This document shows positions 8,235 through 52,793 of a stretch of DNA of 64,000 nt, piece after piece. The position numbers and the translations under genes are program-made. Each line of letters begins with the position of its first letter. Position 1 is the stretch's first letter. Source of the DNA: Geosiphon pyriformis uo1 (Eukaryota > Fungi > Glomeromycota); contig JAAOMT010000324.1 in NCBI GenBank assembly GCA_016748015.1, positions 124,001-188,000 of the forward strand, given 5' to 3'. A model generated the notes under the pieces. That model was given only the letters and a program-made list of their open reading frames with translations. It was not told the origin of the DNA and made no database searches.

Positions 8235-8536
8235 CCAGCCATCACACTGAAAAAAGAAATTTACAGAAGAAACCATTAATTAAATCTCTGTTTATTATAC
8301 AAAAAACTTAACCAAAACCTTAAGATATTATTAACTATATTAATTTTTAAGCACCAAGTTACAGGTTTGTTATTTGTTTTATTCCAAATAATAACTTATA
8401 ACATTTGATGCTTTCTATAAGGTATAATTCAACAAAAAACCAGCACTAACATTAATTATCTGAAAAAGTGGCAAACCAAAAAATTATAAGAAAAGATTAT
8501 TTAGAATTTGTGAAATCTTTATTTTAATATTACCAA

Positions 8537-9562
8537 TGTTATCTAAGTAGAAAAACCAATTCAAAGTTATAAAGAAACATGACCAAAATATGACATAATA
8601 CAGAATAGTGCACAATAATGTTGGATAATGCATTATAACTTAGAATAATATAGGATAATGTGTTATAATGTGAGATAACATAGAATAATATGTAATAACA
8701 CCAGATAACGTGTTATAACATAAAAGAATAAAGCAATAACAGAAATAGCAAAGCAATAGTTAGCAATAATGAAACAATCAAAAGCAATTTTGTAAAACCA
8801 AAAAAATATATAAAAACAAGTAGTTGTAAAAGTTAGAGAAAAGAGATATCTAGATACAAACCACTAGATAAGAATTAAATATTTTTATTTTTTCCATCAT
8901 TTATTCTATTCCATATTCATCTTCTGAAATAAATCAATTATTAAGAAATTAGAATCACAAATTAATGTTCTTGAACTTCATAAAATTTACATAAATTAAC
9001 TATTGTTTCATATCTTTGTTTCAGAACAAATGCTCTTAACATAACTGCTTCAAACTATTAATAATTTGGACCAGTCACTTTTGATCACAGCAATTGATAA
9101 TAATAATTTATCTTTTTTTATTTTTTTTATTTTTCTTTTCTTTTATTTTTATTTTTTTTCTTTTTTATTTTCTCTTGTAGAGCAGCAACATAATAAAATT
9201 GACTGTCTGAAAATAGACTTTGTGATAGTCTGGTAAAAGAGGGAAGCTCCTCCTAAGTTTTGGATATTAATATTATCTTAGTAGCTTACCAAAAGAGCAA
9301 AAAGACAATGCCAGACTCTAATAACTGTGCTCATTAGCTTGAAAAAGATAGCTCATATTTATAAAAAGTTGTAATCAGCAAAAACCAAATTTCTGTGCCT
9401 TATAACCAAAGAACTCAACAGGTAAAATCACAACCAGTAAATAAAACTTTCAGAGACTGATAATCAAGACTAAGCCAATAGAATTACATAAAACATATAT
9501 TACTGATAATTGAGAACACTAAACATTATCATTTCCCTATTCTACCAAGTTTACTTATAAAA
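8537..9562 (+). repeat. 5' LTR of B1
   Basis: tgtta start; colinear with 27903-28960; followed by a TGG-type PBS. Confidence 0.9.
8575..8760 (+). repeat. U3 tandem array type III (10-nt period, ATAAYRYRNN)
   Basis: ataacacaga / ataatgtgtt units; also at 27945-28100 and 52815-53020. Confidence 0.8.
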
Positions 9563-9627
9563 TTTGGTACGCTCTGTGAGGTTATAAAATCTACAGAGAC
9601 AGAGCATTCCAAAGATTTACAAAAATA

Positions 9628-12600
9628 GTGACTATTAGAACAATAGGAAAGGATCACAACTTATATAAAAAAGCATTATTTTAATACTTTTGAGAAGACT
9701 TGGGAATATCTGCAGAAACTGTTATCACAGAAAACCAATTTTGTGATTATTTGTATGCAAAAATTAACTGTTTTCTAGGCCAAACAACAGATACTGAAAA
9801 ACTTAAAGAACAAATTCATCAAAAACTATTAGTTCACTTAATAAATACTACTATCTAAACTATAGCCAAAACTCTTTATATACTTGATAAAGACATCAAG
9901 TACTATGCAGAAAAATATTACTCTCAAGTAAAACAACCAGCAAGGCCTGAAAAATACGAGTCCAAACCCAATAACACAGTAGCCACATGAGAACAAGCTC
10001 ACTTCACAGTCAACAAAAAACCAAAATTCTTTTTTCTAACAATTTTATCATATCATCAGACACCTGAAAATAGAATTGTATTTAACCCAACCACAGAAAC
10101 CCAGGCAGAAACACCATGAACTCCTGAAAATCAACACCCATAGAGTCACAACAATTAGATCAGATCCCTAGAAGAATACAGATCATTATTTAGGAATCTT
10201 ACCCCAACAATCAATAAAACAGACAGAAATATGTCAATGTAAAAACTACTACTAACCCAATCTTTGACTAAATTATCAACTACCCCCCCCAAAAAAACAG
10301 CTATTTTCCAGCCTATTGGGAAAATTAACAAAGGGAAACAACCAAAATTAGCACCAAGAGAACTCTCTAGCACACAAACCCAGTAAAACTCCATTCACTT
10401 ACCAAATTATGACCTACCAAGATATTGTCAAATTAGAAAAAGTCTCAAGAGAAGAAAACAATATATACTTATAGATTGTGGAAGCTGAAAAAGTAATTAC
10501 CACCAACAACTGGAATAATGACAGAGCTATTCAAGCACTGTCATTTTTATTGACTGGAACCACAAACTTGTGATATCAAAGTCTGACAGAAAAACCCACC
10601 AACTTTATTGCCTTTAAACTTGTCTTTTTTTGATACTTTTGCGACCCCAATACTCTTATCAGATTACAGAATCAATTCAGCATAATAAAACAAAAAAATC
10701 ATGAAGCAGTGACTACTTATCTTGGATGATTCAACCAAGTTTTTCAGCAAATACTGGCAATTGAAAGAGATTACTACACCACAACACAAGTTTTTAATCA
10801 ATTCATCAAAAGACTAAGGAGTAATTTCCTGAAATCCATAAAACTTTGACATCTGACAAATCTACCAGATGCCATCACCCTTGCTTATGATTTTAAGTCA
10901 GCTAAACAAGAAGCTAATCACACCTAAGCCATTAATCTAGCCATCAATGAAACTTTTGATATTGATGCAAAAATAATTCAATTAAGTGAAAAATTAACTC
11001 AGAAAATTGAGAAATTCTTAACCAGTACAACAGAAACTTATCAGCCACTTCAACAAAAAAACAATAACAGCAGTAGGTACCCCCAATAACAAAAACATCA
11101 GCAACAACAACAATCTTGGAGATCCAACCCCCACAATTGCTATTATTGCCAGAAATCTGGACATATTGCCCAAAATTGCCAACAGAAATTAGTAGACCAG
11201 AATTGAGAAACTTAATACCAACACCCAAGATATTTCCAGGCAATAGAATCCCAATACTTTGTGTTCCAGTATCCACTGCCTCAATACACACCACTAATTA
11301 TGTATACTCAACAACTGCCTCAGAACTATTATTAGCCATTATAGCCAATGACTCAAATAGCATTATAGTATCAAAACTCTATTTATAATCTACTTAGACC
11401 TTGTACAATTGACTACAACCAAAGATGAAGGAATTCTAGCAACAATCAGATACAAACTAACAGTGGACTATTGTGACCTCTCAATCAGAATAATGTCTCA
11501 TCTTAATTAGCACCAACCAGATACCCAAATCAAGCCTTATATTTTAGTCTTACTGAAAACCAAGATTTTTTAGTTCTACATCATTAGAAAAGAAGAATAT
11601 AGAAGAAATGCCCAACCCTTCAAGTTAAAATCAAATCAACAATACCATTCCACCTATCACTATCACTGAAGACACTACTCTTGCCACTATTTTTTCCTTT
11701 AATATTAACAATTTAAACACCAACAGCTTTTTCAGTAGAGCTGCCATTAATCAGAATAAACTAATAACTGCTCTGTATATTGACACTAAAGTTAAAAACA
11801 TGGATATTAAGTTAATTTTTGATAGTGGATTAGCAGATAGTATAATTATAAAGCAACTTATAGATTAATTAGGTTGTCAAGTAGACTGTGTAGTTACTGC
11901 TCAAATATTAACCACAGATGGAAATACTAAAACTCTGATAGGAAAAATTGACAACTTTCTCTTCAAAATTGATGAAATTCAAATCTCTACCAAAGTGCTT
12001 ATTATGGAGGCCACCCAATATCAAGCCCTCATAGCAAATGATTGGTTAGCCAAAGCTAATACCACCATTAACTGAAACACACAAAAATTACAGATCACTT
12101 TTAACAGACAGCATGCACAAGTTTTAACTACATGTGGACACTTTAAAGCTCAAAGCCCAAAAAAACTGCTGATTGAATTTGAAGACTCAATACCACCACC
12201 AACAATAGAAGCCTATCAAGTTTTTTGGGCTGATGATTACTAAGCAGAGTTACTCCTACTACCAACTTGAGAAAAAAAAGGCAAGAGAAAAGCAAAAGAA
12301 GAACTACAATTAGCATCTGCAAGTTTTTCTGCCCCAAGTCAAGGAAGTCAATAGTATTAAACCCTGAAATTAATTTGTGTCAACTGTGGAAAAAAGTTAT
12401 CTTCTATGGGTGCATATATTGAAGATGACAAAAAATGGCCAACTGCCACCAAATATTATTGCAGACCTTGTGTATTAGAAAAATTTGGTAGATTAAAACA
12501 ACAAGATAAATGGGACAATACACTATGCTTTGTCTGTAACAAAATTTTGCCAGATGAAAAAATATGAAACAATATTTCCAGCAGAGAAAGAACATGTAAC

Positions 12601-15400
12601 AAAGCATGTCAATACACTATTTTGATCAATAATTGGGTACAAAAAGAAACCCCAATCGAGAATGTCTAGAGATAAGCACTCAATAAATTGGATAATTACC
12701 TGCACAATAAACACGAAATATAGAGAATGGCAAGTGCCAAAGCTAAAGGTGCTACACTTGGTAAAATATGAAAAATCAAAAAAAATCTGTTTATACCAGA
12801 ATATAGTGGACCTGACTACATTACAGAAGATTTCTTCACAGATAATCTAGATGCATTTCAAGATCAATACCAGAAATTGGTCTTAACTCGAGAAGAGCAA
12901 AAACAGTAATTAGCTAACCTAAACATAAAACTGTGTGATTATTGTTTGATCCCTTATCACTTTTAGTACTGTGACAAATGTGATCTTATGTTCAATTCAT
13001 CTCCAAGAAAACTATACCTGATTACCAAACTACCTGAACCTGAGATAGAAGAGGAATTAATCACCAAGGACATGTTGTTTCAAGATCCAACTGAAGATAC
13101 TAAAACAAAACAGTATTTCACTTATCCAGATTTTTTTAAAGAATTAGAATTAAAATAGTACAGTAACAACAAGGAAAAAATCTATCCTGAAAGAGTACAT
13201 AATATTGATGCTGGTTTTGACTTATAATACTCCAAAAAATTATTTATAGTTATAGCCACATTCTCTTGTAAAAATAAATCTTAAGATAACATTAGAAATC
13301 CCTATTAGTAAAATAGTACAAGTTGCCTTTTGATTCAGCCTGGCCAAAAAAAAAATTGATGTAAAAGGAGGAATCATTGATGCCAAATATATAAAAAACA
13401 TCATCATAATGCTACAAAACAATTCAGACAAACTTTACAAAATAGAATCACAAGAAAAAATTGCCCAAGCTATTTTTCTATTTCTAGTCAAAGTACCACA
13501 ATTAACCCCAGTAACAATTCAAAAAAAATTAGGTCTTACTGTCCAAGAAATCAATGAGTTTAGATTAAGTAGAAAAGGAAACATACCAGTTAACTTTACA
13601 GAGAAAAACAGTAACCAAATAAAACTTATCTACACCAACATAGTTATTTCTATTCTCTTATATCAATAATACATCTTCAAAATAAATTGAAAGATCCAAG
13701 ATCAAGTTCTGTTATTTGAAGCCAATCCTGAAATCTGTTCTTTAGCCAATATTGCTAACTTATATCTACTAGCCAAAGCTTATAAACACTTCAAAATCTC
13801 CATCCACAACTCTATAGAAGATGTTATTAAAATTCCCAAAGGGACTTTCATTGGTTTCATCTCACTAAACATTCAACATTCCAAAAAACCCCAGCCTATT
13901 TTAGATTTCACACAGCTATTTTTATTCTGCAATATTACCTCACAAGTATGAAACTTGCTAAAAAAAAGTTACCTGTTTACATCAGAAGAAATTGACAAAC
14001 TACACTTGGAAAACTTGAGTATTCTTCAACAAATGCAACTTAAGGTTTTCTTGAATTAATATGTTGATGTCTTTGCCAGCAAAAATGATTTCAGATACAC
14101 TGACATTGTGAAATATCAGATTGATATGAAAGATACACAACTTATTAAACAGCAGACCTACTAAGTACCTCTATTTGATAATAATTTAATTAAGCAAGAA
14201 ATACAACAAATGCTTAACAATGGCTTGATTAAAGAATCACTAAGCCTTTAATCCTCTTCAGTGGTTCTGGTCACTAAGAAAAATGGGAAAATAAGATTTT
14301 ATGTAGGCTATTAAAAGCTAAACAGTATTACCTAAGAAAATAGTTACTTCACACTTTTTATTCAAGAAATTCTGAACAATTTAGGAAACAAAAAATGGTT
14401 CTCATCATTAAATCTAGCCAGTAAATATTGGCAGGTTGAAATGGATTTTAAAAACAAAGAAAAAATGGCATTTACTATCTGAAACAAAAACTTTAAGTTT
14501 AATGTAATGCCCTTTAAACTCTATAATGCTCCTGCTATCTTTTAGCATTTTATGGATGTTATGTACAAAAAAATCTTGTAGAAATTAGTTGTAATATACC
14601 TAGACAATGCCAACATCTTTTTGGAAACATTCAATGATTACTTGCTCTATCTTTAGCAAGTTTTCAAATGCCTTCATAGTGCTAAATTGAAACTCAATCC
14701 CAATAAATGCTTTTTTGGAAAGACCAAGTTGAAATTCCTAGAACATGTAATTGGCAAAAACAGAGTCAAACTTGATCCAGATAAGGTCCAAAAAGTCAAA
14801 AATTTTCCAGTTCCAATTAATCTTAGAGAATTACAAGAATTTTTAAAATTGGCAAAATACTATCAATAATTTGTCAAAAGATTCTTAACTATCACAAAAC
14901 CACTTTACCAGTTGTTGTCCAAACATGTACAGTATCTATAGAAAAAAGACCAATAAAAAGTATTTAACTATCTCAAACAGCAATTGATCACATTCCCAAT
15001 TTTGATTTACCCAGATTTTACTAAATGATTCATTATTGCTACAGATACCTTAAAAAATGCTCTAAGAACAGTCTTATCACAAATAGAACCAGACAATAGA
15101 AAACATCTAATTGCTTACACCAGTCATAGCATTAGTTCAGCAGAAAAAAATTACAACACAACAGATTTAGAATGTCTCACCATTTATTAGGCCATACAGA
15201 TATGGAAACACTATCTCAGTTTGTTTTTTGACTTATATACTGATCATAAAGAACTTGTTTGGTTACTCAACAATTCACAACTAGAGGGAAAATATGCAAG
15301 ATAGAGTATTTATCTGCAACAATTCTCACTTAAAGTTCATTACAAGAAAAAATCCAAAAACACCAATGCTGACAATTTGTTAAGAATACCACAAACCTAA
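9628..15400 (+). pseudogene. B1 Gag-PR-Cys-rich-dUTPase-RT-RNase H polyprotein pseudogene
   Basis: CYYCQKSGHIAQNC knuckle, FDSG, CVNC/CRPC/CDYC clusters, EKIAQ, KLNPNKCFFG, NAD..RIPQT*; numerous stops. Confidence 0.88.
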
Positions 15401-15499
15401 TCCCAGACTTATAGACACAACTAATTACTACCGACTACATCAATACCTATTGACACTACATTTTAAGAAGATATTATCTTAACAAAAACAGAATACCAT

Positions 15500-15923
15500 T
15501 GTTACAGAGGATTATTTCTGCTGTTGAAGTAAATAACAACCCATAACTTGGTGCTCATGAAGCTACTTCTATTGATGAGATTCTGTGAGCATTATATCTG
15601 AAGATTTTGATGGAGTCCTTTGTATAATGGACAGAGATTCAATAGTTGTTTTATCCATAGCTTCCCAGACTTGCAAGTTTGTCAATTCTTTTCTCGGCTT
15701 GGTGGCCAGCAATCCTCTGGTAAGTAATCCGTATCTTCTGTACATGTCCTACCCTCTCGCAGAGGTCTTTTACCAGGCAATCTTTGATGTCAGTAATCAG
15801 CACTTTTCAATCAATGGATTAGTGCACAATAATAAATCAAAATAAAATAAAGAAAAATAAGAAAAAAAGAAAAAAAGAAAAGAAATAAGCCAAGAAAATT
15901 TGCAAATTAGTATCCCATCAATA
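15500..15923 (-). repeat. 3' LTR remnant of A1 (distal half only)
   Basis: Colinear with 24023-24444; similarity stops abruptly at 15923. Confidence 0.9.
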
Positions 15924-16167
15924 ATAACTCTTTTGTCAATTCTTTTATTGCTAATTTTACTTTCACCATGATTTTGTCCACCGTATTTTCAGTTTTCTTT
16001 GGTGTTCTGAGTTGTAATGTCTTTCTAGTATCTTGATATCGAATGGTTTGTTGGTTGATTGTAATCTCCATTTCCTGGTGTTGGATTAATTGAAAGAGTT
16101 GTTGTGCTAGTGTGTGAATGTTGTCTGTAATTTCCATTTTTCTGATATTTCCTGTCACGTCTACCAT
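15907..16167 (-). pseudogene. A1 ORF3, N-terminal part, fused by deletion to the LTR
   Basis: MEITDNIHTLAQQLFQLIQHQEMEITINQQTIRYQ is homologous to the ORF3 starts at 32347 and 52046. Confidence 0.78.
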
Positions 16168-16191
16168 GTCTTTATATATTCTTTTGATTAA

Positions 16192-17567
16192 TCAATTTAA
16201 CATGTTGTTGTTAATAATAACTATTGGTTCCAGATCTTGTGGAATCTCATCTGGTCGGACTAGTATTCTCTGTACTCCTAATTGTGAAATATTACTGGTA
16301 GATGGTAGTGTGATGTCACAATATGGCTTCAGTTGATCTCTATGTGTTGCTTTGGTTAAAATTTTGTTATCCAATCTTAATTTGTAAGCTTCATTTCCTA
16401 GAATTTCTTTTATGTGAAATGGTCCATCCTATTTGGGGTTGAATTTTCCACTCCATTGTTTTTCCGCTTTGGTATGATGTAGTAATACTTTGTCTCCAAT
16501 CTTGAATTCAACTGGTTTGTCTGGTAGTTGTGTTTTTCTTTTTGTTTTTCTTGTGACTTTTGAATATTATCAGCTGCTCTTCTTCATTTGTTTTCCAATG
16601 TTTCCATTAAGTCATATGTTCTTCTCAGCAATGTTTCTTGAAAATTTTCTTCTGTTATTGGTTCAGCTAGATATGTATTAATTTTTCTCTTCACTAGTAA
16701 CATTGCTGTTCTCCCATATACTAATTCAAATAGTGTTGCTTGTATAGTATTTTGTTTCATTGTTTGATAAGCAAATAGTACTGATGGTATGAACAAATCC
16801 CAATCGTTCTGGTTTTTTTGGCTGAGCTTAGCTATTGCTTTATACAGTGTTCTATTGAATCTTTCTACTAATCCGTTGGTTTGTGGATGGTATGATGATA
16901 ATAATGGTCTCTTGATTCCGAATTTTTGGCTCAATTTTGTTAATGTTTTGTTTACAAAATGAGTTCTTTGGTCTGATAATAATTCTTTTGGACATCCATG
17001 TCGACAAATCAAATTCTAATGAACAAATTTGGCAATGGATTCTGCATCTGCTCTTTGAATTGCTTTTGCCTCTGGTCATTTAGTAAGATAGTCCATAGCT
17101 ACCACTATGTATCTGTTTCCTCTGCTGGTGATTGTTAATGGTCTGACTAAATCAATTCCAATACAGTCAAATGGTTGTACCACTTTGATTGATCTTAATG
17201 GTTCACTGGGTCTTGTTTCTTCTTTTCACTGACAAGCATCACAATTTTGAACATATTGAATGATGTCTGGGTACATTGATGGCCAATAGTATTTCTTTCT
17301 GGTTCTTTCTATGGTTGCTTCTTTGTGAAAATGTTTTGCTGTTGGATTTGAGTGCATGTTGAATAATATTGTCTCTTTTTCTGGCTCCATAATTACTGTG
17401 GTTGGTTAATCTGGATCTCTTCTATTTTTTTGATAAAGTATATTTTGGTAAGTGATAAAATATTTTGATTGTTGTTTGATACTCTTTCGTTTTGTTTGAG
17501 ATAAATTCTCTTTGAATTGTTGAATGTTTATATAATGTTGCAATTGTTGATATTTTTGTATATTCAT
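16192..17567 (-). pseudogene. A1 integrase (HHCC zinc finger, DDE core, GPF/SH3-like C-terminus, no chromodomain seen)
   Basis: ATG at 17567 (MNIQKYQQL); MHSNPTAKHF...CDAC; IGIDLV; ELLSDQ; YHPQTNGLVERFN; DGPFHI. Confidence 0.9.
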
Positions 17568-17630
17568 CTTTTGTTGTATTTTTCTGTTGGTATTGTTCTG
17601 GTTTTGTTATATTTTTGGGTTGAAATGTTC

Positions 17631-20600
17631 TTAGATTTGTCCTATTCACGATAAACCGTCCGCATTTCCATTGTTTTTTCCTTTTTTATAATGTATAGTA
17701 TACTTATATGATGCAAGTGCCATTTTCCATCTTGACTGTTTTCTATCTCCAAATTCTTGTTTTTGAAGTGATATTAATCCTTTGTGATCTGTGTACACCT
17801 CAAATTTCTGGCTCAAATATTTTTTCCATTTCATAACTGACTAGTATATTGCTAAGTGTTCTTTTTCTGGTGTTCTATAGTTCTTTTCGGCCAGTGTTAA
17901 ACCTCTGCTGGTATATGCCACTGAATGTTCTCTGCTGTCTAGTCTTTTTTAAGATAGTACTGCTTTTAATGCCTGGCCAGATGCATCTGTGGTGATAATA
18001 AATGGTTTGCTGTAATCTGGATAGATCAGTACTGGAGCTTGTATAAGCTTTCTTTTTAGAATATCAAAAGCTTTTTGTTGACTTTCAGTTCATTCATATT
18101 TTGTATTTTTGTTTTGCAGTTGGTTGAGTGGCTGCACTATCTTGGAAAAGTTTTTGATAAAATGTTGATAGTAGCTGGCGAATCCCAAGAATGATTTCAG
18201 TTCTGTTATATTGGTCAGCACTGAAAAGTTTTTTACTATCTCTATTTTCTCCAGATCCGTTTTGATGCCATTTTTGCTGACTATGTGTCCTAAGAATTTT
18301 AGTTCTGTCTTGCCGAAGAAGCACTTTGTTGCATTTAACTTTAGTCCTGCTCTTCTTAGTCTTTCGAACACTTGTTGAAGATGATGAAAATGATCATCAA
18401 ACGTTTTTGAGAATACATTGGTGTTGTTCAAGTATACAACTACTGATTTTCACAATAAGCCAATATAAACAATTTCCATTAGCCGTTGGAAAGTTGCTGG
18501 GGCATTGGTTAAGCCGAATGACATCACTTCAAATTCGAAATTCTTTTTTCTAATAGTAAATGCTGTCTTCTCTTTGTCAGCTGGATTCATGGCTACTTGC
18601 CAGTAACTGCTGTCCAAATCTAATGTTAAGAGCCATTTGTTCCCACTGAAAGCATCGAATAATTCCTGTATTCATGGAGTTGGATAACTGTCTCCACAAG
18701 TTACACCATTGAGTTTCCTGTAGTCTACACAAAACCGGATTTTTCTATTCTTCTTATGGATGAGTACCACTGGTGATGACCATGGGCTCATTGATAGTTG
18801 AATTAGCCCCATTGTCAAGCATTCTGTTTATTTCTTGACAAATGATTTCATGGCTGGCTGGTGGTACTCTGTATGCTTTTTGTTTGATTGGCATTGTATC
18901 TCCAGTCTTGATCTGATGCTGGATGATGTCAGTTCAGCCAAACTCATTTTCACTGGCAAAGATGTCATTAAAATTGTTGAGTAACATTTTGAGCTACATA
19001 CATTGAAGTGGATCTAAGTTTCCTATGTTCATTTGTTCCAATTGTTTTGGTTGGAGCAAATAACATTCATCTCGTTCATAGATTGTTTGTGATGTGATGT
19101 TAACATATCCACAAAGTTGTGGAAAGTCTAAAATGGGGTTTGGTGGTTGGTCTTCTATTTCTGTGGTTACATATCTGATGGTGATTCCTTCTGGTATGTT
19201 GATGACATTACCAGTGTTGTTGTAGATAAGAATTTTTATGCTGCTATAGCTTTTGGCTGGTATGTGGAGATTGATTAACCCAATCTCTTCTGATTTACAA
19301 AGGTTTGCTTCAGCTTCAAAAATTTGTCCTTGCTTCTTTTCTTTCCTTCCTATTGTTAACATGTACTGGCTATATGGTGGAATGGAAATAGCTTGACCAG
19401 TTGAGATAATTTCTTCTTGGCCAACAATTTCTTCCTCTGCCATATTAACTGGTACATCTATTCTACCCATTGATCCAAATCCCTGTATTCTTCTCACTGT
19501 TATTCTTAATTCCTCTCTCTTTTCCACTAATACTAACTGAGCTACTCTAACCACAAGCAGAAATATTGTCTGTGCTATTTTTTCATTGAGCTCTATTATG
19601 TAGGCCTTTTTTGAGTCATTTTGTAGCATAGCGATGATATTTTCTACATATTCTGTGTTAATTATTTCTCCTCTTATATTGATCTCTCTTTTTGCTAAAC
19701 TACTCCTAGATGTTAATTGAACTATTGTTGTTGCCAGAATTTCTAGTGCTATTTTCAGATCAATGCAGATGTGTGAATGCGGTTCCAATTTGATGGCATT
19801 ATTTCCTGGATATCTCAGATCAAACCCTGCGTCCGTATAATGCACATGTTCTGGCATAATACCTTCTCCATTGTCACTATACCATTTCAACTCTTGTTCC
19901 TTGGAAAGATCTGGTAGTGCAATGTATTGTTTATGGTTTAAATCAGAGTTTGAATCTGAGTTGGAATCATTTTTGTTGTCATTGTCATTTTGAACAGAGC
20001 TGGAACCGATGTTTTTGTCATTATCGTTGGAGTCTGAATCGCAATTGATCAGCAATTCTGATTCCGATGCACAGCTGCTGATTGGTTTTTCTTCTTCAGG
20101 GATCAAGTAGATTATGCGTGGTGGTAGATTGTAAAGGAGGTCACAATCATCACAATATTCAAAGTCACTGAGAATTAAACAATGGCGACACAGTCTTGTA
20201 TTCAACTGTGCTAGCCATTGTTCTTGCTCTTTTCTAGTGGGTGCCAAGTTTTGGTAGTGTTCATGGAACTCTTCAGGTTCCAGAGAATTTATGGCTGGCT
20301 TTGCATTCCAGTTAAGCTCGATGAGTTCTGGTAAGTTGTTTTTGATTTCTCTGATTTCTTTGGGTGTTGCTCCTTCTATTTTGGCGATTGCCATTCTCCA
20401 CAATTTGTTGTCATCGTGTGGACAACTGTCTAGTCACTGCACGGCTCTTCTCCAGGCTGCTTCTATTGGGGTTCTTTTCCTTATCCAGTCACTTATTAAA
20501 ATTGTGTATTAACACAACACGTCACACGTTCCTTCACGTCCTGGGATGTTGTTCCACATCCCTTCATCTAGTAGGGTCTCCCCACAAGTGAGACAAGATT

Positions 20601-23600
20601 GGTTATCCCATTTTCCTTGCCTCTTTGGTTGTTCAAAGCATTCAAATAAGCATGGATGACAGTAAAACTTTGTTGTGGTGTGGTATTCTTCATCATTGCC
20701 ACAGCATGCGCCTATTGACAACAGTTTCTTACCGCAATTGACACATACCAGCCTTGGCCATTGATAATTGGATTGTTGTAGAGTGTGGTGGATGTAGGAA
20801 TTATAACTGTTGGTCGTTGGTGGTGTTCTTTCTTCCTTTTCTTTTCTTTTTCCCTTATCTTCATTCCATTCCCGACTTGAGGCTTCTTCTTGTTTATTAT
20901 TGGTCCAAGTCAGATCGTTGGTTTCCCAGGTAAGTTCCTTTCTTTGCTTTCCCTTAGGGTTGTCGTCTCACAATAGTACTGGTGGTAGTTCGTAGTGGTC
21001 TTTGTTATTGGTCCCAGCATCAATAGTGGTTTTACAGGTAGGTTTTTTTCCATTGTTATTGTCGTCCTAGGCGAGTATTAATGGCAGCTCGTTGTGGTCG
21101 GCGTTGGCCCATGAAACTTGGTACACTTCCCAGGTAAGTTTCTTTTTCTCTTTCTCTAGTTTGATCAATAGTTTCTCTTTTGGAGGAGTCTTGAAATAAC
21201 CACACGTGGCCGGTACACATATGTGTTGGCCCTGATATGTTAGCTGGAGTTCCTGGGTGTTCCAGTCTAACATTACGTTGACTTTGAATAGCCAGTCATT
21301 ACCAATGAGAGCTTGATATTGAGTGGCTTTCATTACTAGAACTTTAATAGGAGTCACAATACCATTGACTTCGAAAGAGAAGTCATCGATTTCGCTGATT
21401 GGAGTTTTGGTTGCTCCATCAGCTGTAATGACTCTGGCGCTGGCAGCTCAATCAACTCGGCAACCTAATTAATCCATGAGTTGTCGTGTGATGATACTGC
21501 CTGCTGAACCGCTATTGAGAATCAATTTGATGGATTGACCATCAACCTTAGCATTTGTGTACATCGCAGTGATGGGTTTTTCATCAAGAGTGGCTCCACT
21601 AAATAATGGTGTACTTGACAGTTCTTCGATCTCAAATGGGAAGATGGCGGCTAGTAATTCGTTGTTGGTAACTGTTGCTGACAGAATATTGCTAATAAGT
21701 GTTTGTTGTTTTTGGATGGGTTCTTGGTTGCTAGTTGAGGCATCTTCTGGGGTAACCAGGAGACTTAAATAGTGTTGGGAAGTCAGGTTTTGGGTGGCAC
21801 CTGTACCCAAATTCCGAGAACGGGGTCTTAAGCTCTGGTGAGAGGAGCTGGGGACCGGTTAATAAACAATCATTGCCGATCTCCAATTTTGAGCAATTCT
21901 GGGTCTTGGGTTTCTTGCTGTCATCGTAGCTGAGTTTTGGAGCAGTGTTTGGATTGATGGTTGAGACCAATAAATTATTTGGGGCTGTGGCTGATAAATT
22001 ACTGGAGGTTGCTGTTAATAAATTGCTGAAGGCTGCTGTTGATAAATTGATATACTGGCAGTTGATAAATTGGTTGCTGCGTCATTGGCAAGTAAGTAGT
22101 TTGATATTGGTCTTGATTTTGATTCAAATAACAATTCGGAGTTTGGAACTGGCAATTGGGATTTCTGTATTGATTTTTCAATCATTGGTTGCTATAAGTA
22201 TGGCAATTAACTCGAATATGGTCTTGTTTACCATAGTTATGACAGACACGCATTTCCAGCTGCCATGGTGGACTAGGTGTAGTCAAAGATAATAACCGTG
22301 ATTGATTTTGGAAATGATTTGCATTTCCTGAATTATGGCATCGTTGTGGTATTTGATATATGGCGCGATTGTCAGCTAAGTATTCCTCTAGTTTCTGATT
22401 AATTGACTTACTGAATTGTTTCAGTTTGGAGTCCAATTTAGATGATCCATTCATTACTAGGTTTACTGCTTGGGCATGGTTGGCTTCTAACTTAGCTGTT
22501 TCAAAATCTCTGGCATGTATAACTGCGGTAGGGAGGTCAACTGGATGCATTGGGCGTACTCACTGGAAAAGGTTACTGCACAAATCTCTAATAAATTGGT
22601 TTAAAATCTGTGGTGCTGTAAAATAGTCAGCTTGAATTGCTTGGATCTGGTGTAGGTTTCTATGGAAGCATCTTAGGTAAGTGGTAACTGCTTCAGTATC
22701 TCCTTGTTTGATGGTGGTGAAAAGATTGGCTAATTTGTTGATACTATTATTGTTGCTGAAATATCTTATGAATTCCATCTTGAAGTTGTTGAAGTTTTGG
22801 GGTTTAACAGCTAGACTTTAATACTATGCATCTGTGGTGTCTTTTAAAAAGTATGGGATGGCTTGAAGTGCTCGGGCGTTATTTCATCCGTTCACAGTGA
22901 TGGCTTTCTCTATGTCATTCAGCCATACTTGTACATTGTCTTCTTTGCCAGTAAAGTTGTTAAGTTTTGCAATTGGTGCATAGGCCATTGGATCTAAGTT
23001 GGGTTGTTGTGGTGGCTGTTGAAGTGGTTGTTGTTGTACTGATTGTTGGGGTAGTAGTTGAAATGGCTGTTGTATGGGTTTGGCTACTGGATTAATTGGC
23101 AGTTGATCGATGATAATTACTGGAGGTAAGTTTTATTGATTACTTAATTTGGGGTTTGGATTGTTCTGCCTTTGATGATTCGGGGTTTCAATTTCCAAAT
23201 TTTCTAGATTTAGACTTTGCTGAGCTTGAAAATTTGGGGTTTCAACTTCTGGGTTTTCAGTGATCAGGTTTTGATAAGTAAATTTTTGATCTTCCAATTC
23301 TTCTTCTTCTTCTTCAGATAGTTCCCATAGGGTAGCAATTCCAAAGTCCAGTTGAGGCGACAGTGATCGAATTTCTGATGGAGTTGGTGATCGTGATTTA
23401 AATCCTTTAAAATACACTCCATATGGCCCTAGTAAATCTTCTTTTTGTTGTTTGCTTTGGAACTAGAATCTTCCAATTGTTAATATTGCATTTGAGATGG
23501 ACGTGTCTGCTGATGAGATGTTGATGGTGCTTCCAAGTGTGTAGTGATATAATGAAGTGGTTGGTGATTTTACTCTGTGCTTCTTCCAACTAGGTAACTG

Positions 23601-23963
23601 TATTCCTTTTGGTGTTGCTGCTGGTGTTTGTATTCTTTCTTTACCTTTGTCTGCATAGATAATAGGAAATTGTTGTTGAGTGTATCTTTCAATAGTCTGG
23701 TTGATTTCTCTGATTATTGGTGCAAAACTATAGTTCCTTGGTAAGTTGGTGTGTTGGAATAATTCTGTGTAAAAGTTTTCTCTTGCTACTTCAATGTTAA
23801 CTGTTCTTCCTAAGCATTCAGTGATTTTGTCATTGACATAAAAATTGAAGGCTGATTTGGCTGGATAATGATTACTGTTTAATTCTAATTGTTGGCTGTA
23901 TTGTTGAAACAAGGATTTTGCGAATCCTAAATGGTTTGCTCCTATATTTTCTGATTCTGCCAT
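17631..23963 (-). pseudogene. A1 Gag-PR-Cys-rich-dUTPase-RT-RNase H polyprotein pseudogene
   Basis: ORF-track fragments: MAESENIG..., capsid (AKLNNFTG..VWL), CHNYGKQDHIRVNC, LILNSGSAG, DAGFDL/RSS/EKIAQ/GFGS, RFCVDYRKLN, LKFLGH, YTDHKGL, NADGLS. Confidence 0.92.
19460..19860 (-). other. dUTPase domain within A1 ORF1
   Basis: All five trimeric dUTPase motifs are recognisable: DAGFDL, SRSS, (G)II(D)xxYxxxI, EKIAQ, R(G)xxGFGSxG. Also present at ~13190-13570, ~35620-36004, ~42660-43050 and ~48460-48755. Confidence 0.9.
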
Positions 23964-24003
23964 ATTTAGATTTGGGTTGGTACTGGTTCTCTGTAGGATT
24001 ATA

Positions 24004-24022
24004 CCTCACAAGGAGCACCAAA
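24004..24022 (-). promoter_or_regulatory. Primer-binding site TT-TGGTGCTCCTTGTGAGG, elongator tRNA-Met-like
   Basis: Lies directly after the LTR end; variants at 39961-39979, 9563-9581 and 8404-8422. Confidence 0.8.
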
Positions 24023-24870
24023 TGTTACAGGAGATTATTTCTGCTGTTGAAGTAAATAACAACCCATAACTTGGTGCTCATGAAGCTACTTCTATTAATA
24101 AGGTTCTGCGAGCATTGTATCTGAAGGTTTTGATAGAGTCTTTTGTATAATAGACAGAGATTCAATAGTTGTTTTATCCATAGCTTCCCAGACTCGCAAG
24201 TCTGTCAATTCTTTTCTTGGCTTGATGGCCAGCAATTCTCTGGTAAGTAATTTATATCTTCTGTACATGTCCTACCCTCTCGCAGGGGTCTTTTACCAGG
24301 CAATCCTTGATGTCAATAATCAGCGCTTTTCAATCAATGGGTTAGTGCATAATAATAAATCAAAATAAAATAAAGAAAAATAAGAGAAAAATAAAAAAAA
24401 AAAAAATAAGCCAAGGTGATTTGCAGATTAGTATCCCGTCAATAGCCATGATCAAGAGCTATTGTTCCAGTGTGGTTAAGTATCACTTATTATCAACATG
24501 AAGTGTTAATAGTGGAAAGTGGATTGAGATATGAAATAATTATTTATTTGATGATTTTTGTTTCTAGGCTAAGGATTCTGTGGTATTGATTCTGTCTTTT
24601 CTGTTTTTAATACTACTGCTATATATACATAATTGAGATTTCTCAATTCCTCAATTCTTTACGACAGGAATCCTGAAATTCCTGGAATCCTGCAATTCCT
24701 TTGAGAGGAATCCTGGAATTCTGAAATCCTGTAATTCCTCGTCAAAAAATCCTGAAATTCCTGGAATCCTGCAATTCCTGAGAAGAATCCTGGAATTTCA
24801 CATTTACTATGCTTACTTCTGATTGGCTAATAATTATGCTAATATATTTCTTATATTTCTATGAGTAATA
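24023..24870 (-). repeat. 5' LTR of A1 (848 bp)
   Basis: Termini t(g/a)ttac...gtaaca; type II array; TATA-like tgtatatatagc at ~24618-24630. Confidence 0.92.
24645..24800 (-). repeat. U3 tandem array type II (GGAATTGCAGGATTCCAGGAATTTCAGGATT-like units)
   Basis: Repeated tcctgaaattcctggaatcctgcaattcc on the + strand; also at 25665-25830, 7435-7560 and 4010-4090. Confidence 0.85.
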
Positions 24871-25589
24871 CCATATAAAAACAAGCCCGAAATTATTTTA
24901 TTTAAGACAACCAACTATATCAATAAGAATATTGAAACTGTCCCACCTTACAATAAGTTATCAAAAACAGTGAAAAAGAAACTATATTACATAGTATGCA
25001 TTCTGATCCAACCACAGAACATTTTAACAAAGATGCTATCCTTAAAAGAATCCTAAATTTATACTATTGGCCAATAATATACAAAGACATTTTCAAATAT
25101 ATGCTTAATTGTAACTTATGCCAGCAAAGAAAAGGAGCCAGAACAATGAAACCACTTTGACTCATTCCAGTTGGAAATCTATTTGATAGAATTGAAATCA
25201 ATTTGATTGGTTTTCTTTTTATAACATTCAAAAAAAATTGTTATATCACTGTAACTGTAGACTACTTGACAAAATGGCTAGAAGCCAGAGCCATCCAAGT
25301 AGCAGATACTAAAACAATAGCTGAATTTGTATATCAAGATCTGATTTGCAAACATGGATGCTTAAAAAAACTCCTATCTAATCAAGAAATGCATTTTGTT
25401 AATAATACATTAACTAAATTAAGTTAATAGTTTGAAATAAAATATTCTTTATTGTTACCATATCACTTACAAATAAACAGACTAGTAGAACAATTTAACC
25501 AAATACTGTGTAAAACATTAGCAAAAATAAGTTATGAAAATAAACAAAAATGAAACTTATTTATATTTTCTGTACTCTTTGCATACCAA

Positions 25590-30814: not shown

Positions 30815-31697
30815 TGTTACAGATGATTATTTGGGGTCTCAAATTAAATAACAAATCCATAACTTGGTGCTCAATATCTTGACAATGCTAATGATACTGG
30901 TACATTGGTTGTATCTGAAGGTTTTAGAGTTGAGTTTTTTGTATAATAGACAGAGATTCAATAACAATATAATTGGTTGGTAAGTTGTGTTCCCAATTTC
31001 TGTCTTCAGCTTGGTAGTCAGTTTATTCTGGCAGTTATGCCCTTCTGGTAAGCTATCTGTTAATATATATATAATTTTACCCTTATTTCTGGGTCTTTTA
31101 CCAGGCTATCCGTGATATCAATTATTCAGCACTTTAATCCTTAATCAGTTAGTATATAACAGTAAAAATCAAAGAAAAAAAGAAATAAAAAAAAATAAAA
31201 AAATGAGCCAAGGCAATGTGTACGTTAGTATCTTGTCAATAGTCATAATTAAGAGCTATTGTTTCAGTGTAGTTAGGTATCAATTACTATTAACATAAAG
31301 TGTTAATAGTGGAGAGTGAATTTGGATAGTAAATGATTTATTTATTTAATATTTGTGGATGGAAGATTTCTAACTAAAAGATTCTTATCTTTCTATTTCT
31401 AATACTACTGCTATATATACATAATTAATGTTCTATGAGATCGCTTATATTCTCTAGTGATGTGCTATGATTTCTTGAGCAATGCTCATATTGCTGAGCA
31501 ATGTGCTCTAATTTTCTAACATCACTCTATATTGCTGAGCAATGTGCTGTGTTTTCTGATATTGCTCCACATTGCTGAGCAATGTGCTGTAATTTCTATC
31601 ATTGTTCTACATTGCTAAACAATGTGCTTATATGCTACATACTATTTATTTATTGGTCTATTATTCTTCCTATATCTGTTTTTTTTTATGAATAACA
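30815..31697 (-). repeat. 3' LTR of A3
   Basis: Colinear with 39980-40823; tgtta/taaca termini. Confidence 0.92.
31445..31635 (-). repeat. U3 type I palindromic array, cleanest copy
   Basis: cacattgctgagcaatgtg-like dyad repeated 4-5 times at ~39-40 bp spacing. Confidence 0.88.
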
Positions 31698-31711
31698 TTA
31701 TCTCCTATTTT

Positions 31712-32347
31712 TTAATATTGAGCTCTGTTGAAATTTTCATTCTGAATTAGCTCTAATACTTCTTTTTCTAGTATTGTTTATTTGACTTTATTTTTTACGT
31801 CTTCTACTTGTATATTGTTCATTTTTCCCCATTGGTTAATAGTTATAGTTTTTATGTCAGAGTGTAATAGTATTTCTGGATAATTCTGAAATATATTGTG
31901 CAGTCAGTAAATTGTTCTCACATGTAGTGTTGAATTTGTCTTTTTCCCAATAAATTCTTCAATTTGCTGTATTATGTTTTGGTTAAATATTTTTTTGGAT
32001 TTGTTAATATACAACTCTTGAATATTTAACTTTTGACCTAACTGGTAGTAACAGTATGATATTGGAAGTTGTTTTGTCCATTGCTTCCAATTCTTTTTTG
32101 TAAGTTCTTCTGTTGGTGCCATAATAAATATTTTCCCAAAAGTGTTTTTTACTTTTTCTATTATTTTATTTGACCAGTTTTTATCATTCTTTGGTAATCA
32201 CTGATATGGTGTATTCTTTGTCTTTCTTTTGGTGTTTTGATAGTAAATTGTTTGGTTGTTAACAATAATTTTTATGTCTAAAGGTTGTTGACTTAAGGTC
32301 TGGAATAATTGTTGAGCTATAATGTAAATATGATCTGGTATTTCCAT
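31712..32347 (-). pseudogene. A3 ORF3, ~211 aa, unknown function
   Basis: ATG to TAA in one frame (636 nt) with a few point stops; MEIPDHIYIIAQQLFQ...YCYYQLG...FNRAQY*. Confidence 0.8.
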
Positions 32348-32409
32348 TTTTTTTCTTGGTTGTCTTTGTTACGTATATTGTGTCTTTATATACTCTTTTA
32401 TTGTTTGAT

Positions 32410-33770
32410 TTTACATGTTTGGTCCAATGATTATAATTGGTTCCAGATCTTGTGGAATCTCCTCTGGTTGAACTAGTATTTATTGTACTCCCAATTGTAG
32501 AATATTATTGGTAGATAATGATGCTATTTGGTGATATGGTTTTAGTTAATCATCATGTGCTGCTTTGGTTAAAATTTTGTTGTCCCATCTTAATTTATAA
32601 GCTCTATTTCCAAGAATTTTTTCTATGTGAAATGGTCTGTCTCATTTGGGATCAAATTTTCCACTCCATTGTTTTTCTGCTTTGGTACAATGTAGAAATA
32701 CTTTGTCTCCAATCTTGAATTCAACTGGTTTATCTGGTAATTAGTTATTATGTCATTTTTTTTGCTTTTTTTGAGACTTTTGAATGTTATCAGCTGCTTT
32801 TTGTTGTCTGTTTTCTAGTGTTTCTATTAGATCATATGTTTTTCTCAACAATGTTTTTTGGAAATTAGCTTTTGTTATTAGTTTAGTTGAATATGTGTTG
32901 ACCTCTATTTCAACTGGTAATGTTGCTGTTCTATTATATATTAATTCAAATGGTGTTGCTTATATAGTATCTTGTCTCATTGTTTGATAAGCAAATAATA
33001 CTAATGGTATAAACAAATCTCATTCATCTTGGTTTTTTTAACTGATTTTGGTGATTGCTTCACACAATGTTCTATTGAATCTTTCAACTAGTCCATTGGT
33101 TTGTGGATAATATAGTAATAATAATGGTCTTTTTATCTCAAATCTTTGACTTAATTTTGTTATTCACAAAATGAGTTCCTTGATCTGATAGTAATTTTTT
33201 TGAAAATTTGTGTCGACATATCAAATTTTGATAAATGAATTCAGCAATGGATTCTGCATCTGTTTTTTGAATGGCTTTTGCTTCTGGCCATTTTATGAGA
33301 TAGTCCATAGCTACTGCAATATATCTGTTTCTTCTACTGGTGATTGTTAATGGTTTAACTAAGTCAATTCTAATGTGATTGAATAGTTGTCTTACTTTGA
33401 TTGGTCTTAATAGTTCACTGGATTTTGTTCCACTTTTTCTTTGACAAGCATCACAACTTTGAACATATTAGATGATGTCTGGATACATTAATGGTCAATA
33501 GTATTTTTTTCTGGTTCTTTTTATGGTTGGTTCTTTATGAAAATGTCTTGTTGTTGGATCTGAGTGCATGTTAAACAATATTGTTTTTTTTTTTGATTCT
33601 GTAATTACTCTGGTTGGTTGGTTTGAATTTTTTCTGTTTTTTCAGTAAAATATATTTTGATAATTGATGAAATATTTTGATTGCTGTTTTATGTTGTTTT
33701 GTTTTTTTTAAGATAATTTCTCCTTGAACAATTAAGTATTTATATAATGCTGGAGTTGTTGGTATTTTTG
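32410..33770 (-). pseudogene. A3 integrase
   Basis: MHSDPTTRHF, CDAC, YYPQTNGLVERFN, KFDPK; colinear with the A1 integrase. Confidence 0.85.
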
Positions 33771-33783
33771 GGTTGAAATGTTT

Positions 33784-36700
33784 TTAGATTTGTCTCATTC
33801 ACGACAATCTGTCAGCATTTCCATTGTCTTTTCCCTTTTTATAATGTACTGTATAATTGAATGGTGAAAGTTCTATTTTTCATCTGGCATGGCAATCGTC
33901 TGCAAATTTTTGTTTCTGGATTAAAGTCAATCCTTTGTTATCCATATATATTTTAAACTTTTGGCTCAAGTATTCTCTCTATTTAATAACAGCCCAATAG
34001 ATTGCTAAGTGTTTCAGTGCTGGAGTTCTATAGTTCTTTTTAGCTGGACTTAAACTTTTACTGGTGTAAGCTACTAGATGCTCTCTTTCATTGGGTCCTT
34101 TCTGTGATAGTACTGCTTCCAATGCTTGACCTGATGTATCAGTAGTAATGATGAATGGTTTGTTGTGATCTGAATACATCAATACTGGAGCTTGGGTAAG
34201 CTTTCTTCTCAATGTGTCGAATGCTTTTTGTTGAGCTTTAGTCCATTTATACTTCACATTCTTGGTTTGTAGATGGTGAAATGGCTGAACTAGTTTAGAA
34301 AAGTCTTTAATGAAGTGGCAATAGTAGCCTGCGAATCCCAAAAATGCCCTTAGTTCTGGCAAGTTGGCTGGTACTGAAAAGTTTTTAACTACTTCAATCT
34401 TGTCTGGATCTGTTTTGATTCTATTTTTGCTCACTACATGTCCCAAAAACTTGAGTTCAGTTTTTCCAAAAAAATATTTGGTTGTATTTAGTTTTAATCC
34501 AGCTCTTCTTAACCTTTTGAATACTTGTTGAAGATGATGCAAATGATCATTGAATGTTTTTGAGAACACATTGGTATTATTCAAGTATACAACTACTGAT
34601 TTCCATAGTAATCCAGTATAGACAATTTTCATGAGCCATTGGAATGTTGCTGGAGCATTTATCAAGCCAAATAGCATAACTTCAAACTCAAAATTTCTTT
34701 CTCTTGTGGTAAACACTGTTTTTTCTTTGTTGGCTGGATCTATGGCTACTTGCCAATAACCACTATTTAAAGTCTAATGTTAAAAACTATTTATTTCTTC
34801 CAAAAGCATCAAATAGTTTTTGGATCTTTGGAGTTGGATAGCTATCACCTTTTGTTACTCTATTCAGTTTTCAGTAGTCTACACAAAAATGGATTTTTCC
34901 ATTCTTCTTATAGACTAGTACTACTGGTGATGACCATGGATTCATTGATGGCTGAATTAGCCCATTGTCAAGCATCTGGTTGATTTCTTGACAAATGATC
35001 TCATGGCTAGCTGGTGGTACTCTGTATGCTTTTTGTTTAATTGGCATTGCATCTCCAGTCTTGATCTGATGCCAGATGATATTAGTTCAGCCAGATTCAT
35101 TTTTGCTAGCAAAAATGTCATTAAAATTGTTGAGTAACATCTTGAGTTGCATTTATTGAAGTGGATCTAAATTCCTCATATTTATCTGTTCCAATTGTTT
35201 TGATTGGAGCAGATAACATTTACTTCATTCATAGATGGTTTGTAATGTAATGTCCACATATCTGCAAAGCTGTGGAAAATCTGGAATGTGATTTGGTGAT
35301 TGATCCTCAACTTCAGTGGTCAAATATTTAATAATAGTTCTCTTTAGTATTTCAATGACACTTCTGGTTGTATTGTAGATAGGAATTTTGATGTTTTTAG
35401 GGCTTTTGGCTAATATGTAGAGATTAGTGAGTTTAATCTCCTCTGATTCGCAAATGGTGGCTTCTGCTTCAAACAACTGAGCCTGATTCTTTATTTTTCT
35501 TTTTATAGATAACATATACTAATCATATAATGGAATGGAAATTGATTGATGAGTTGAGATAATTTCTCTTTTGTCAATAACCTCTTTCTCCGCCATATTA
35601 ACTGGTATGTCTATTTTATCTGTTGATCCAAATCTCTGTATCTCTTTAGCAGTAATCCCTAATTCTTCCCTGTTTCCTACTGACACTAATTGAGCTATTT
35701 TTACCAAAAATATTGCTTATGCTATTTTTTCATTTGGCTTTATGATATAGGCCTTTTCAGAGTCATTTTGTAGCATAGCAATAATATTTCCTACATACTC
35801 TGTGTTAATTATTCTTCCTTTGATGTTGATTTCTTTTTTTGCTAGGGTACTCTTAGATACTAATTGAACCATAGTTGTTGCTGGAATTTTCAGAGCTATT
35901 TTGAGATCAATACATGTGTGCAAATTTGGTTCCAATTTGATGGCTTTTTTTTCTGGATATCTTAGATCAAACCCTGCATCAATATCATGTGTGCATTCTG
36001 GCATAATATCTTCATTATTGTCACTATATCATTTGAGTTCCTGCTCCTTAGATAGATTAGAAAGTGCAATATATATTTCAGAGTTTGAATCAGAGTTTGA
36101 ATTGCTGATATTTTTGTTGCTATTTTGAGTGGAGCTGGAACCATTATTTTTATTATTGTCATTGTTAGAGTTTGAATTAAGATTGAAAATTGATTCTGAT
36201 TCTGATGCACAGTTGCTGATTGGTTTTCTTTCCTCTGGGATTGTGTAGATTATACATGGTGGTAGATTGTAAATGAGATTACACTCATTACAATATTGAA
36301 AGTCACATAGAATCAAACAATAGTCACATAGTCAAGTGTTGATTTCTTTCAAGCATTGCTTCTGCTCTTCTCTTATAAGTGCTAACTCTTGATAATGTTC
36401 GTGGAATTGTTCTGGATCTAGGAGATTTATAACTGGTTCTGGGTCCTAGTCAAGTTCTATAGGTTTAGGTGGGTTATTTTTAATTGTTTTTATCACTTCT
36501 GGTATTACTTTTTCGATTTTGGCAAGTGCCATTTGCCAGATTTCATTATTGTTGTGCGGACATCTGTTCAGACATTTGACGGCTCATCTCCAGGCAGCAT
36601 CTATGGACGTTCCTTTCCTCACCCAGTCACTTATCAGAATCATATATTAACATGATTCATTGCACGTTCCTTCTCACCCAGAAATGTCATTCCATATTTT

Positions 36701-39700: not shown

Positions 39701-39917
39701 TGGTGCTTTGGAGTAATTCACTGAAGAAGTTGTTGAAAGTAGATTCTGGATCTTCTTGGTCTTTCAAGTGATATACTATTCTTTTGTTGATGTAGCAATT
39801 GAAAGCTGATTCAGTTGGTCAACTATTATTTGTTAATCTAAGATAAATGTGATAGTGTTGAAATAAAAATTTTGCAAATTCTAAATGGTTTGTTCCTATT
39901 TCTTCAGATTTTGCCAC
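33784..39917 (-). pseudogene. A3 Gag-PR-Cys-rich-dUTPase-RT-RNase H polyprotein pseudogene
   Basis: The Gag and protease fragments (39767, 38645, 38330, 37610) share one frame; 245-aa RT/RH fragment at 33979-34716. Confidence 0.9.
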
Positions 39918-39979
39918 TGTTTAGATGATTATGGTTGGTGCTGTTCTCTGTAAAATTATACCTCACAGGGAGCACCAAA

Positions 39980-40823
39980 TGTTATAGATGATTATTTGGA
40001 GTCTCAAATCAAATAACAAATTCATAACTTGGTGCTCAATATCTTGACAATGCTGGTAATACTGGTATGTTAGTTGTATCTAAAAGTTTTAAAATTGAGT
40101 CTTTTATATAATAGACAGAGATTTAATAATGATATAATTAGTTGGTGAGTTGTGTTCCCAATTTCTGTCTTCAGCTTGGTGGCTGGTTTATTCTTTAGTC
40201 ATGCCCTTCTGGTAAGCTATTTGTTAATATATATATAATTTTACCCTTATTTCTGGGTCTTTTACTAGGCTATCCATGATGTTAATTACTCAGTGCTTTA
40301 ATTTTTAATTAGTTAGTATATGACAGTAAAAATAAAAGAAAAAAATAAATAAAAGAAAATAAAAAAATGAACCAAGGTAATATGCACGTTAGTATCTTAT
40401 CAATAGCCATGATTAAGAGCTATTGTTCCAGCATGGTTAGATATCAATTATTATCAACATAAAAAGTTGATAGTAGAAAGTAGATTTGGATAGTAAATGA
40501 TTTATTTATTTAATATTTGTGGATAAAAGATTTTTAACTAAAGAATTTTTATCTTTTTACTTCTAATACTATCATTATATATACATAATTGATGTTCTAC
40601 AAGATCACTCATATTTTTGAGTAATGTGCTATGATTTCTTAAGCAATGTTCACATTGCTAAGCAATGTGCTCTAATTTTCTAACATTGCTCCACATTGCT
40701 GAGCAATGTGCTATGTTTTCTGACATTGCTCTATATTGCTAAGCAATGTGTTCACATACTACATACTATTCATTCATTGGTCTATTATTCTCCCTATATC
40801 TGTTTTTCTTTTTATGAGTAACA
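39980..40823 (-). repeat. 5' LTR of A3
   Basis: Adjacent to the PBS; type I array at 40610-40755. Confidence 0.92.
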
Positions 40824-46800: not shown

Positions 46801-46987
46801 ATTATTCAGAAATATTACTACACCAAAAAATGGAAACAATAATTGTTAACCAATAGAAAAAAATAAACAACTCTCAATATAAAAAAATAAAGAACAAAAT
46901 CAAACAAACAGTATTAAAAAGAAAAATAATAGACTTGATTCAAAATAAAAATTTTGACAGAGCTTAATATTAAAAAAGAGAAGATAA

Positions 46988-50583: not shown

Positions 50584-50593
50584 TCTCAGACCC

Positions 50594-51961: not shown

Positions 51962-52045
51962 CAGTAATACATGACTATTTAATTGGAAAATTCAAGTATA
52001 TATAACATCCAAAAAAACAGCAAGAATTGATAGAACTTTGTCAAC

Positions 52046-52780: not shown

Positions 52781-52793
52781 AAGAGAGAGATAA

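Follow-up and report, generated by a model that had tools for sequence, protein, structure and literature searches.

The locus described here raises the question of whether an LTR retroelement can encode its integrase as a gene of its own, or whether the stop codon lying between RNase H and integrase is a scar of sequence decay. The window, which is the whole stretch of 64,000 nucleotides of Geosiphon pyriformis DNA that was analysed, is a nest of decayed LTR elements (copies A to F), and LTR sequence amounts to 41.2% of the genome of this fungus according to a passage in PMC11952901. A sequence-only reading had proposed that element A represents a Ty3/Gypsy lineage with separate cistrons for Gag-Pol, integrase and a third open reading frame (ORF3), with accessory domains and a structured leader. 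A is a dead, partly deleted Ty3/Gypsy copy of a wide lineage that carries integrase as its own gene.

Structure and setting of element A

Element A is an LTR element on the minus strand with exact ends at positions 15500 and 24870 (Table 1). Its termini read TGTTAC...GTAATA, the latter being a decayed GTAACA. The element was inserted inside the integrase gene of copy D, and the empty site for this insertion is visible in copy E; 4-bp target duplications are likewise present at copy B, copy D and a solo LTR. A is a dead copy that decayed through C-to-T changes: its LTR pair shares 92% identity across 412 aligned bases, 30 of the 32 differences are transitions, and the CpG observed/expected ratio is 0.34. 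The PBS presumably resembles elongator tRNA-Met, and no tRNA genes for comparison were found in the window or in 30 loci.

Table 1. Coordinates of element A, its parts and its sister copies in the window
Feature	Coordinates	Strand	Remarks
5' LTR of A	24023..24870	-	848 bp; U3 with palindromic repeats, U-rich tract, CTGGTAA/TTACCAG pair, U5 hairpin
TATATA; AATAAA in 5' LTR	24627; 24548	-	TATA and poly(A) roles inferred
PBS	24004..24020	-	pairs with upstream U5 segment in predicted fold
gag	22200..23963	-	long N-terminal part, Retrotrans_gag/Ty3 capsid, decayed zinc knuckle, decay stops
Aspartic protease	21289..21555	-	PF13975, E 1.4e-09
Cys-rich domain	20130..20754	-	limits approximate; between protease and dUTPase; also in B and D
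dUTPase	19471..19857	-	PF00692, E 3.9e-15; motif 3 decayed in A
Second domain	19069..19458	-	about 130 aa, between dUTPase and RT; in 5 window copies
RT and RNase H	17631..18987	-	closes at conserved TAA 17631-17633
Spacer, RNase H stop to integrase AUG	17568..17630	-	63 nt, A-rich, AUG-free
Integrase ORF of A	16192..17567	-	own ATG; N-terminal extension, HHCC, core, SH3-like end; decay stops, one frameshift
ORF3, 5' remnant in A	15924..16137	-	about 72 codons; truncated by the deletion of about 0.9 kb
3' LTR remnant of A	15500..15923	-	U5 side only
Target site duplication CCAT	24871..24874	+	4 bp; other copy 15496-15499
Copy B	30815..40823	-	same family as A; both LTRs, whole ORF3 region (from 32347), PPT 31698-31713
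Copy C	about 40900-47996		
Copy D	8535..15499	+	left part; resumes 24871, ends near 28970; second family; insertion target of A
Copy E	47997-53700		second family
Copy F	4100-5900		
Best-kept ORF3 (copy E)	52046..52777	+	244 codons, 2 decay stops, ends just before PPT

The copies of the window fall into two families with clearly diverged RT domains, the first comprising A, B, C and F and the second D and E. Compared with copy B, A lacks about 0.9 kb, namely the 3' U3, the PPT and the larger part of ORF3. The full layout is therefore a composite of A and its sister copies, which supply the ORF3-PPT-LTR end. The layout proposed earlier accordingly holds in A as to the order of domains, the LTRs and the PBS, but the complete ORF3-PPT-LTR end is found in B, C, D and E. 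Copy D is interrupted twice, by A (15499/24871) and by a solo LTR (25590-26522) that belongs to the family of A; both are independent insertions into its integrase gene. Palindromic repeats of 9-11 nt in tandem make up the U3 regions (24640-24800, 25650-25800 and 40640-40780); they vary from one subfamily to another and possibly serve as transcription-factor sites. The window additionally contains a better kept non-LTR (LINE-like) element on the minus strand (54930-61627) with a long ORF1, RT and C-terminal RNase H, and a fragment of this element at 24-892.

The Pfam matches in A follow the order Gag/Ty3 capsid, protease, dUTPase, RT, RNase H, integrase H2C2 and rve. A single Gag-Pol frame, as had been claimed, is present in copy B, whereas gag and protease lie in different frames in A. 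The Cys-rich domain is without a Pfam match, and Cys-rich spacers are present in other members of the RT clade described below. With respect to the claimed tandem of a dUTPase and a dUTPase-like domain, the dUTPase was confirmed by its Pfam match and has relatives at the equivalent place in the clade members P0059, P0092 and L032, but the second domain is without detectable dUTPase similarity. Its comparison with dUTPase profiles by hhalign gave probabilities of 0.4% and 1.7%, a Pfam search with 37 homologues gave no dUTPase similarity, a PDB sequence search gave no match, and among the other sequences searched no match was obtained outside the five window copies; its structure model reached a pLDDT of 34. 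In the clade members P0064, P0072, P0091 and P0096, a PF00293 domain, a long acidic tail rich in Cys/His or a dUTPase located downstream of RNase H was observed, showing that accessory domains were captured repeatedly.

The integrase gene is closed by a stop codon 2-7 codons past the integrase end motif EPIxII in all six copies, and relatives end their integrase at the same motif. ORF3 starts 54-84 nt after this stop and ends at the PPT. An uninterrupted homologue of 244 residues, P0002, has the same start and end. All 36 named relatives of ORF3 belong to G. pyriformis, and a search of 1.84 billion representatives yielded 46 hits, among which all seven of the more distant ones that were looked up are likewise from this species. 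The product is predicted to be a basic, soluble, mostly helical accessory protein, and a role as soluble regulator is a guess. No transmembrane stretch was detected in three ORF3 proteins (top 19-residue hydropathy 0.39-1.18), so that the transmembrane or fusion features of Env-bearing Gypsy elements are missing from ORF3. No Pfam match was obtained, and the structure model (pLDDT 63) gave no Foldseek match; the best VIA Z score of 5.5 falls on one long helix. A kinship of ORF3 with the downstream ORFs of L010, L026 and L057 was rejected, as no similarity was found. A short motif ahead of the PPT is common to the window copies (52758-52793) and the distant element L010 (9181-9215); it lies inside ORF3 in the window and outside any ORF in L010 and is therefore likely a cis-acting DNA or RNA element.

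The stop codon behind RNase H

The stop codon stands 4-5 codons past the RNase H end motif in all five window copies, which represent both families, and it is real and not a product of decay. The RT-RNase H regions of these copies contain 58 decay stops at 40 positions, none of which is common to more than three of the five copies; the integrase regions contain 51 decay stops at 37 positions, with one Trp site common to four. It is extremely improbable that the RNase H stop is itself a C-to-T product in dead copies of an active element with a continuous pol. Such an origin would fit the heavy transition decay and CpG depletion of the copies, the recurrence of 12 of the 40 RT-RNase H decay-stop positions in two or three copies and the possible change of CAA to TAA. 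It is contradicted by the presence of the stop in five of five copies and in relatives with uninterrupted frames, by the out-of-frame spacer of the second family and specifically by L010, L014, L022, L026 and L057. Intact relatives with a continuous pol, which would have spoken against the earlier proposal, were not seen within the clade, the members with open frames keeping the stop. Contigs from the DNA sequencing run X1, which may derive from the source sample, cover positions 15400-20600 (53,838 pieces) and provided a weak hint in the same direction: the best-supported 40 of 487 differences include three internal stops of A, and the RNase H stop is not among these 40. In some of these contigs, the spacer is about 33 nt shorter, as in copy C.

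The distribution of the stop was followed among RT relatives. Of 120 listed proteins, 117 contain a near-whole RT-RNase H domain, and 45 of these, including one from Rhizophagus irregularis, end at most 25 residues from the RNase H motif; 44 of the 45 group with the window copies. In a tree of 219 rows, to which 80 metagenome loci and 59 contigs from assemblies labelled as prokaryotic were added and which contains no curated references, the window RTs fall into a clade of 80 rows with a support of 95 that also includes Rhizophagus proteins. Within this clade, 62 rows end at most 25 residues from RNase H, seven have non-integrase tails and 11 were unscored; the 11 include the two Rhizophagus clarus gene models P0071 and P0073, the sole cases in the clade in which RNase H and integrase are joined. 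An IQ-TREE analysis of a 52-row subset recovered the clade with an SH-aLRT value of 92, apart from the elements with integrase before RT. The support of the clade is regarded as moderate. Pol is continuous in the sister rows L020 and L024, and the window RTs are nested among Gypsy-type rows with a continuous pol.

In each of the 13 clade loci in which the RNase H end is visible and no long tail follows, a stop codon occurs within 1-20 codons. L010 is a complete 9.7-kb element of this layout; its open frames comprise gag, a frameshifted pol that closes at RNase H, then integrase and two further ORFs, and PPT and LTR follow. The lineage has a separate integrase gene across RTs that share only about 50% identity. 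The claim of separate cistrons for integrase and ORF3 is borne out and extends beyond the two window families: the RNase H stop marks the RT clade as a whole, and outside the window it is present in members with uninterrupted frames. No clade member was found among viral contigs. The loci L049, L054, L069 and L124 also have a stop near RNase H but fall outside the clade and were excluded from the count of junctions. The contigs filed in bacterial or archaeal assemblies carry 59 Gypsy-type loci (L089-L147) and likely represent eukaryotic contamination.

Expression of integrase and ORF3

The spacer between RNase H stop and integrase start is in frame in A (63 nt) and C (30 nt) and out of frame in D and E (10 nt). 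The spacers of A and C each contain a second in-frame TAA, possibly resulting from decay. Within the window, the integrase ATG is intact in A only, being ATA in C, D and E and deleted in B. The junction was screened in 12 clade loci that show the integrase start. Stop and start overlap in two of them (TAATG in L010 and ATGA in L025), six have spacers (L080, 14 nt; L016, 38 nt; L014, 63 nt; L081, 74 nt; L057, 110 nt; L026, 163 nt), and in the remaining four (L013, L022, L030 and L098) a short ORF intervenes, with junctions of up to 524 nt. The intervening ORFs occupy positions 1608-2072 in L013, where the ORF abuts integrase (TAAATG), and 2548-2748 in L022, and they overlap integrase in L030 and L098. 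The L014 spacer is in frame without a second stop, and L081 has an out-of-frame AUG 16 nt upstream of the integrase AUG. All three relative frames and all three stop codons occur across the clade junctions. In the alignment, the integrase Met occupies a single position immediately ahead of the helix that follows the linker in fused integrases, which indicates that the whole enzyme is encoded in the second ORF. Six of seven spacers are AUG-free compared with about 4.1 expected from shuffles, a difference that is uninformative.

The leader had been suggested to be structured and to supply RNA elements for the expression of the downstream cistrons. The LTRs of both families contain the complementary pair CTGGTAA/TTACCAG and a U-rich tract. 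Folding is strong only at the U3 repeats and at the U5-PBS end (z -4.7 and -4.5), and most R/U5 windows fold no better than shuffles. The latter corresponds to a long hairpin in which U5 and PBS of the first family are paired; copy D is without a clear hairpin of this kind. In a consensus fold of seven LTRs, 5 of 34 pairs are changed on both sides, a value matched by 52 of 500 shuffles, so that covariation does not exceed that of the controls; paired changes can also be mimicked by C-to-T decay. A comparison of the leader with Rfam gave no match of note. Support for a structured leader is mainly confined to the U5-PBS hairpin, and the LTR elements as expression route found no support, no feature being linked to integrase expression. 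Two ACTAAC/T branch-point-like motifs flank the U-rich tract at 24330-24450 on the minus strand and in other LTRs, and eight AUGs precede gag; a leader intron or a ribosome shunt is possible. The junction itself, with its overlaps and short A-rich spacers, is the better lead.

We consider the chances about even that integrase is made by termination-reinitiation on the same RNA, as a separate cistron. The Gag-protease-dUTPase-RT-RNase H frame ends at the RNase H stop, after which a fraction of the ribosomes would restart at the overlapping AUG of the TAATG or ATGA type or, otherwise, continue scanning through a short A-rich spacer until they reach the next AUG, over 63 nt in A and 10 nt in the second family. 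This would release free integrase at a lower level than RT; not being fused to Gag, it would need its own route into the particle, possibly by binding RNA or Gag, and ORF3 would likely be expressed from a subgenomic RNA or by a second restart. Restart is favoured by the overlapping junctions, by the conservation of the integrase Met and by the fact that the relative frame varies freely. UAAUG coupling works in the fungal hypovirus CHV1 with an efficiency of 4.4%, and AUGA is a listed type of stop-restart junction, according to passages in PMC2699510. The spacing argues against it in part, as only two of 12 junctions overlap and one lies within 14 nt, and the remainder, with spacers of 38-163 nt or an intervening ORF (up to 524 nt), are long for coupled restart. 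Moreover, no restart signal was found in the 12 loci, since a TGGGA motif is absent from the 90-120 nt before the stop and the folding of this segment is not unusual (z -2.0 to 1.4).

Those long spacers and intervening ORFs would be accommodated more easily if integrase and ORF3 were translated from a subgenomic RNA, spliced at a leader donor or transcribed from an internal promoter within the RNase H region, a route that we regard as less likely than restart but as its main rival. Precedents are given in passages of PMC7828637, which describe foamy virus Pol as a free protein translated from a spliced mRNA, and of PMC5408684, in which ORF3s typically derive from spliced messages; the branch-point-like motifs of the first-family LTR, the upstream AUGs of the leader and the intron assumed at the junction in the gene models P0071 and P0073 point the same way. 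Exact stop-start overlaps would serve no purpose on such an RNA, however, and in three of the 12 loci (L010, L080 and L081) no YAG acceptor occurs in the interval that separates the integrase AUG from the nearest AUG upstream. Readthrough or frameshifting, by which pol would be one polyprotein across the junction, is improbable to a clearly greater degree. The in-frame spacers of A, C and L014 would permit it, but the use of all three frames and three stop codons, the conserved integrase Met, the overlaps and intervening ORFs that cannot be read through and the second in-frame TAA in A and C argue against it.

Taken together with termination-reinitiation as the preferred reading, we tentatively propose, at somewhat less than even confidence, an unnamed Ty3/Gypsy clade, abundant among fungi of the arbuscular-mycorrhizal type and dominant in the genome of Geosiphon, that would have a truly polycistronic RNA, express free integrase and accessory proteins by stop-restart and package integrase unfused. 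If true, this would be a way of expression and assembly that is new among LTR retroelements and would provide a ready-made standalone integrase gene, a possible source for Ginger-type DNA transposons.

Comparison with known retroelements

The window elements resemble canonical Ty3/Gypsy elements (Metaviridae) in their TG...CA LTRs, short target duplication, PBS, PPT (in B, C, D and E), Ty3-type capsid, order of protease, RT, RNase H and integrase, and Gypsy-type integrase. They differ in that the canonical Pol is one protein with protease, RT, RNase H and integrase, as described in passages of PMC12440569 and PMC4427930, whereas integrase is here a separate ORF outside the Pol polyprotein. The chromodomain at the integrase C-terminus that marks chromoviruses gave no match in L010 or copy A, the integrase ending with EPxxxI and a few residues. 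No LTR lineage with a separate integrase ORF was found in the open-access literature that was searched. Troyka and Kuafuorterviruses were considered and rejected, the passages on them giving no sign of a split pol.

The accessory set had been regarded as unusual, but passages in PMC2864245 describe a dUTPase between protease and RT in PosPlaTy3-5 of Postia placenta, and those in PMC5408684 a third ORF together with dUTPase in bdelloid rotifer elements; with both features published and a second dUTPase-like domain not demonstrable, the set is less unusual than had been claimed. The passages on dUTPase-bearing fungal Gypsy elements (PosPlaTy3-5, Phanerochaete and Tuber Tmt1) and on the rotifer elements contain no split pol. 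The window elements differ from them further by the missing chromodomain match and by an ORF3 without transmembrane stretch or Pfam match.

Junctions of the UAAUG and AUGA types, as in L010 and L025, are reported in passages of PMC2699510 for caliciviruses, SART1 and the CHV1 hypovirus. In these RNA viruses and this non-LTR element, coupling was established by experiment according to the same passages, whereas it is here proposed from sequence and most junctions have spacers. In foamy viruses, Pol is produced separately from Gag and requires a packaging route of its own (passages in PMC7828637), as would the integrase here, although in those viruses the whole Pol is separate and spliced and here only integrase is separate. 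The elements with integrase before RT (L058, L074, L078 and L109) share an RT-RNase H frame that also ends just after RNase H, but their integrase lies upstream in the same frame, which is not the case in the window copies, and they belong to another clade. We take these elements to be those named Gmr1-like.

LTR retroelements normally carry integrase into the particle as part of Pol, so that a clade with separate integrase must control its amount and package it otherwise; complete elements such as L010 make integrase dosage and packaging directly testable. The lineage also bears on annotation. A search with the dUTPase region yielded 527 hits, all 120 listed ones being G. pyriformis proteins, and hundreds of 'hypothetical proteins' of this species thus match pieces of the element. 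Tools expecting a continuous pol would annotate intact members as defective or place a spurious intron between RNase H and integrase.
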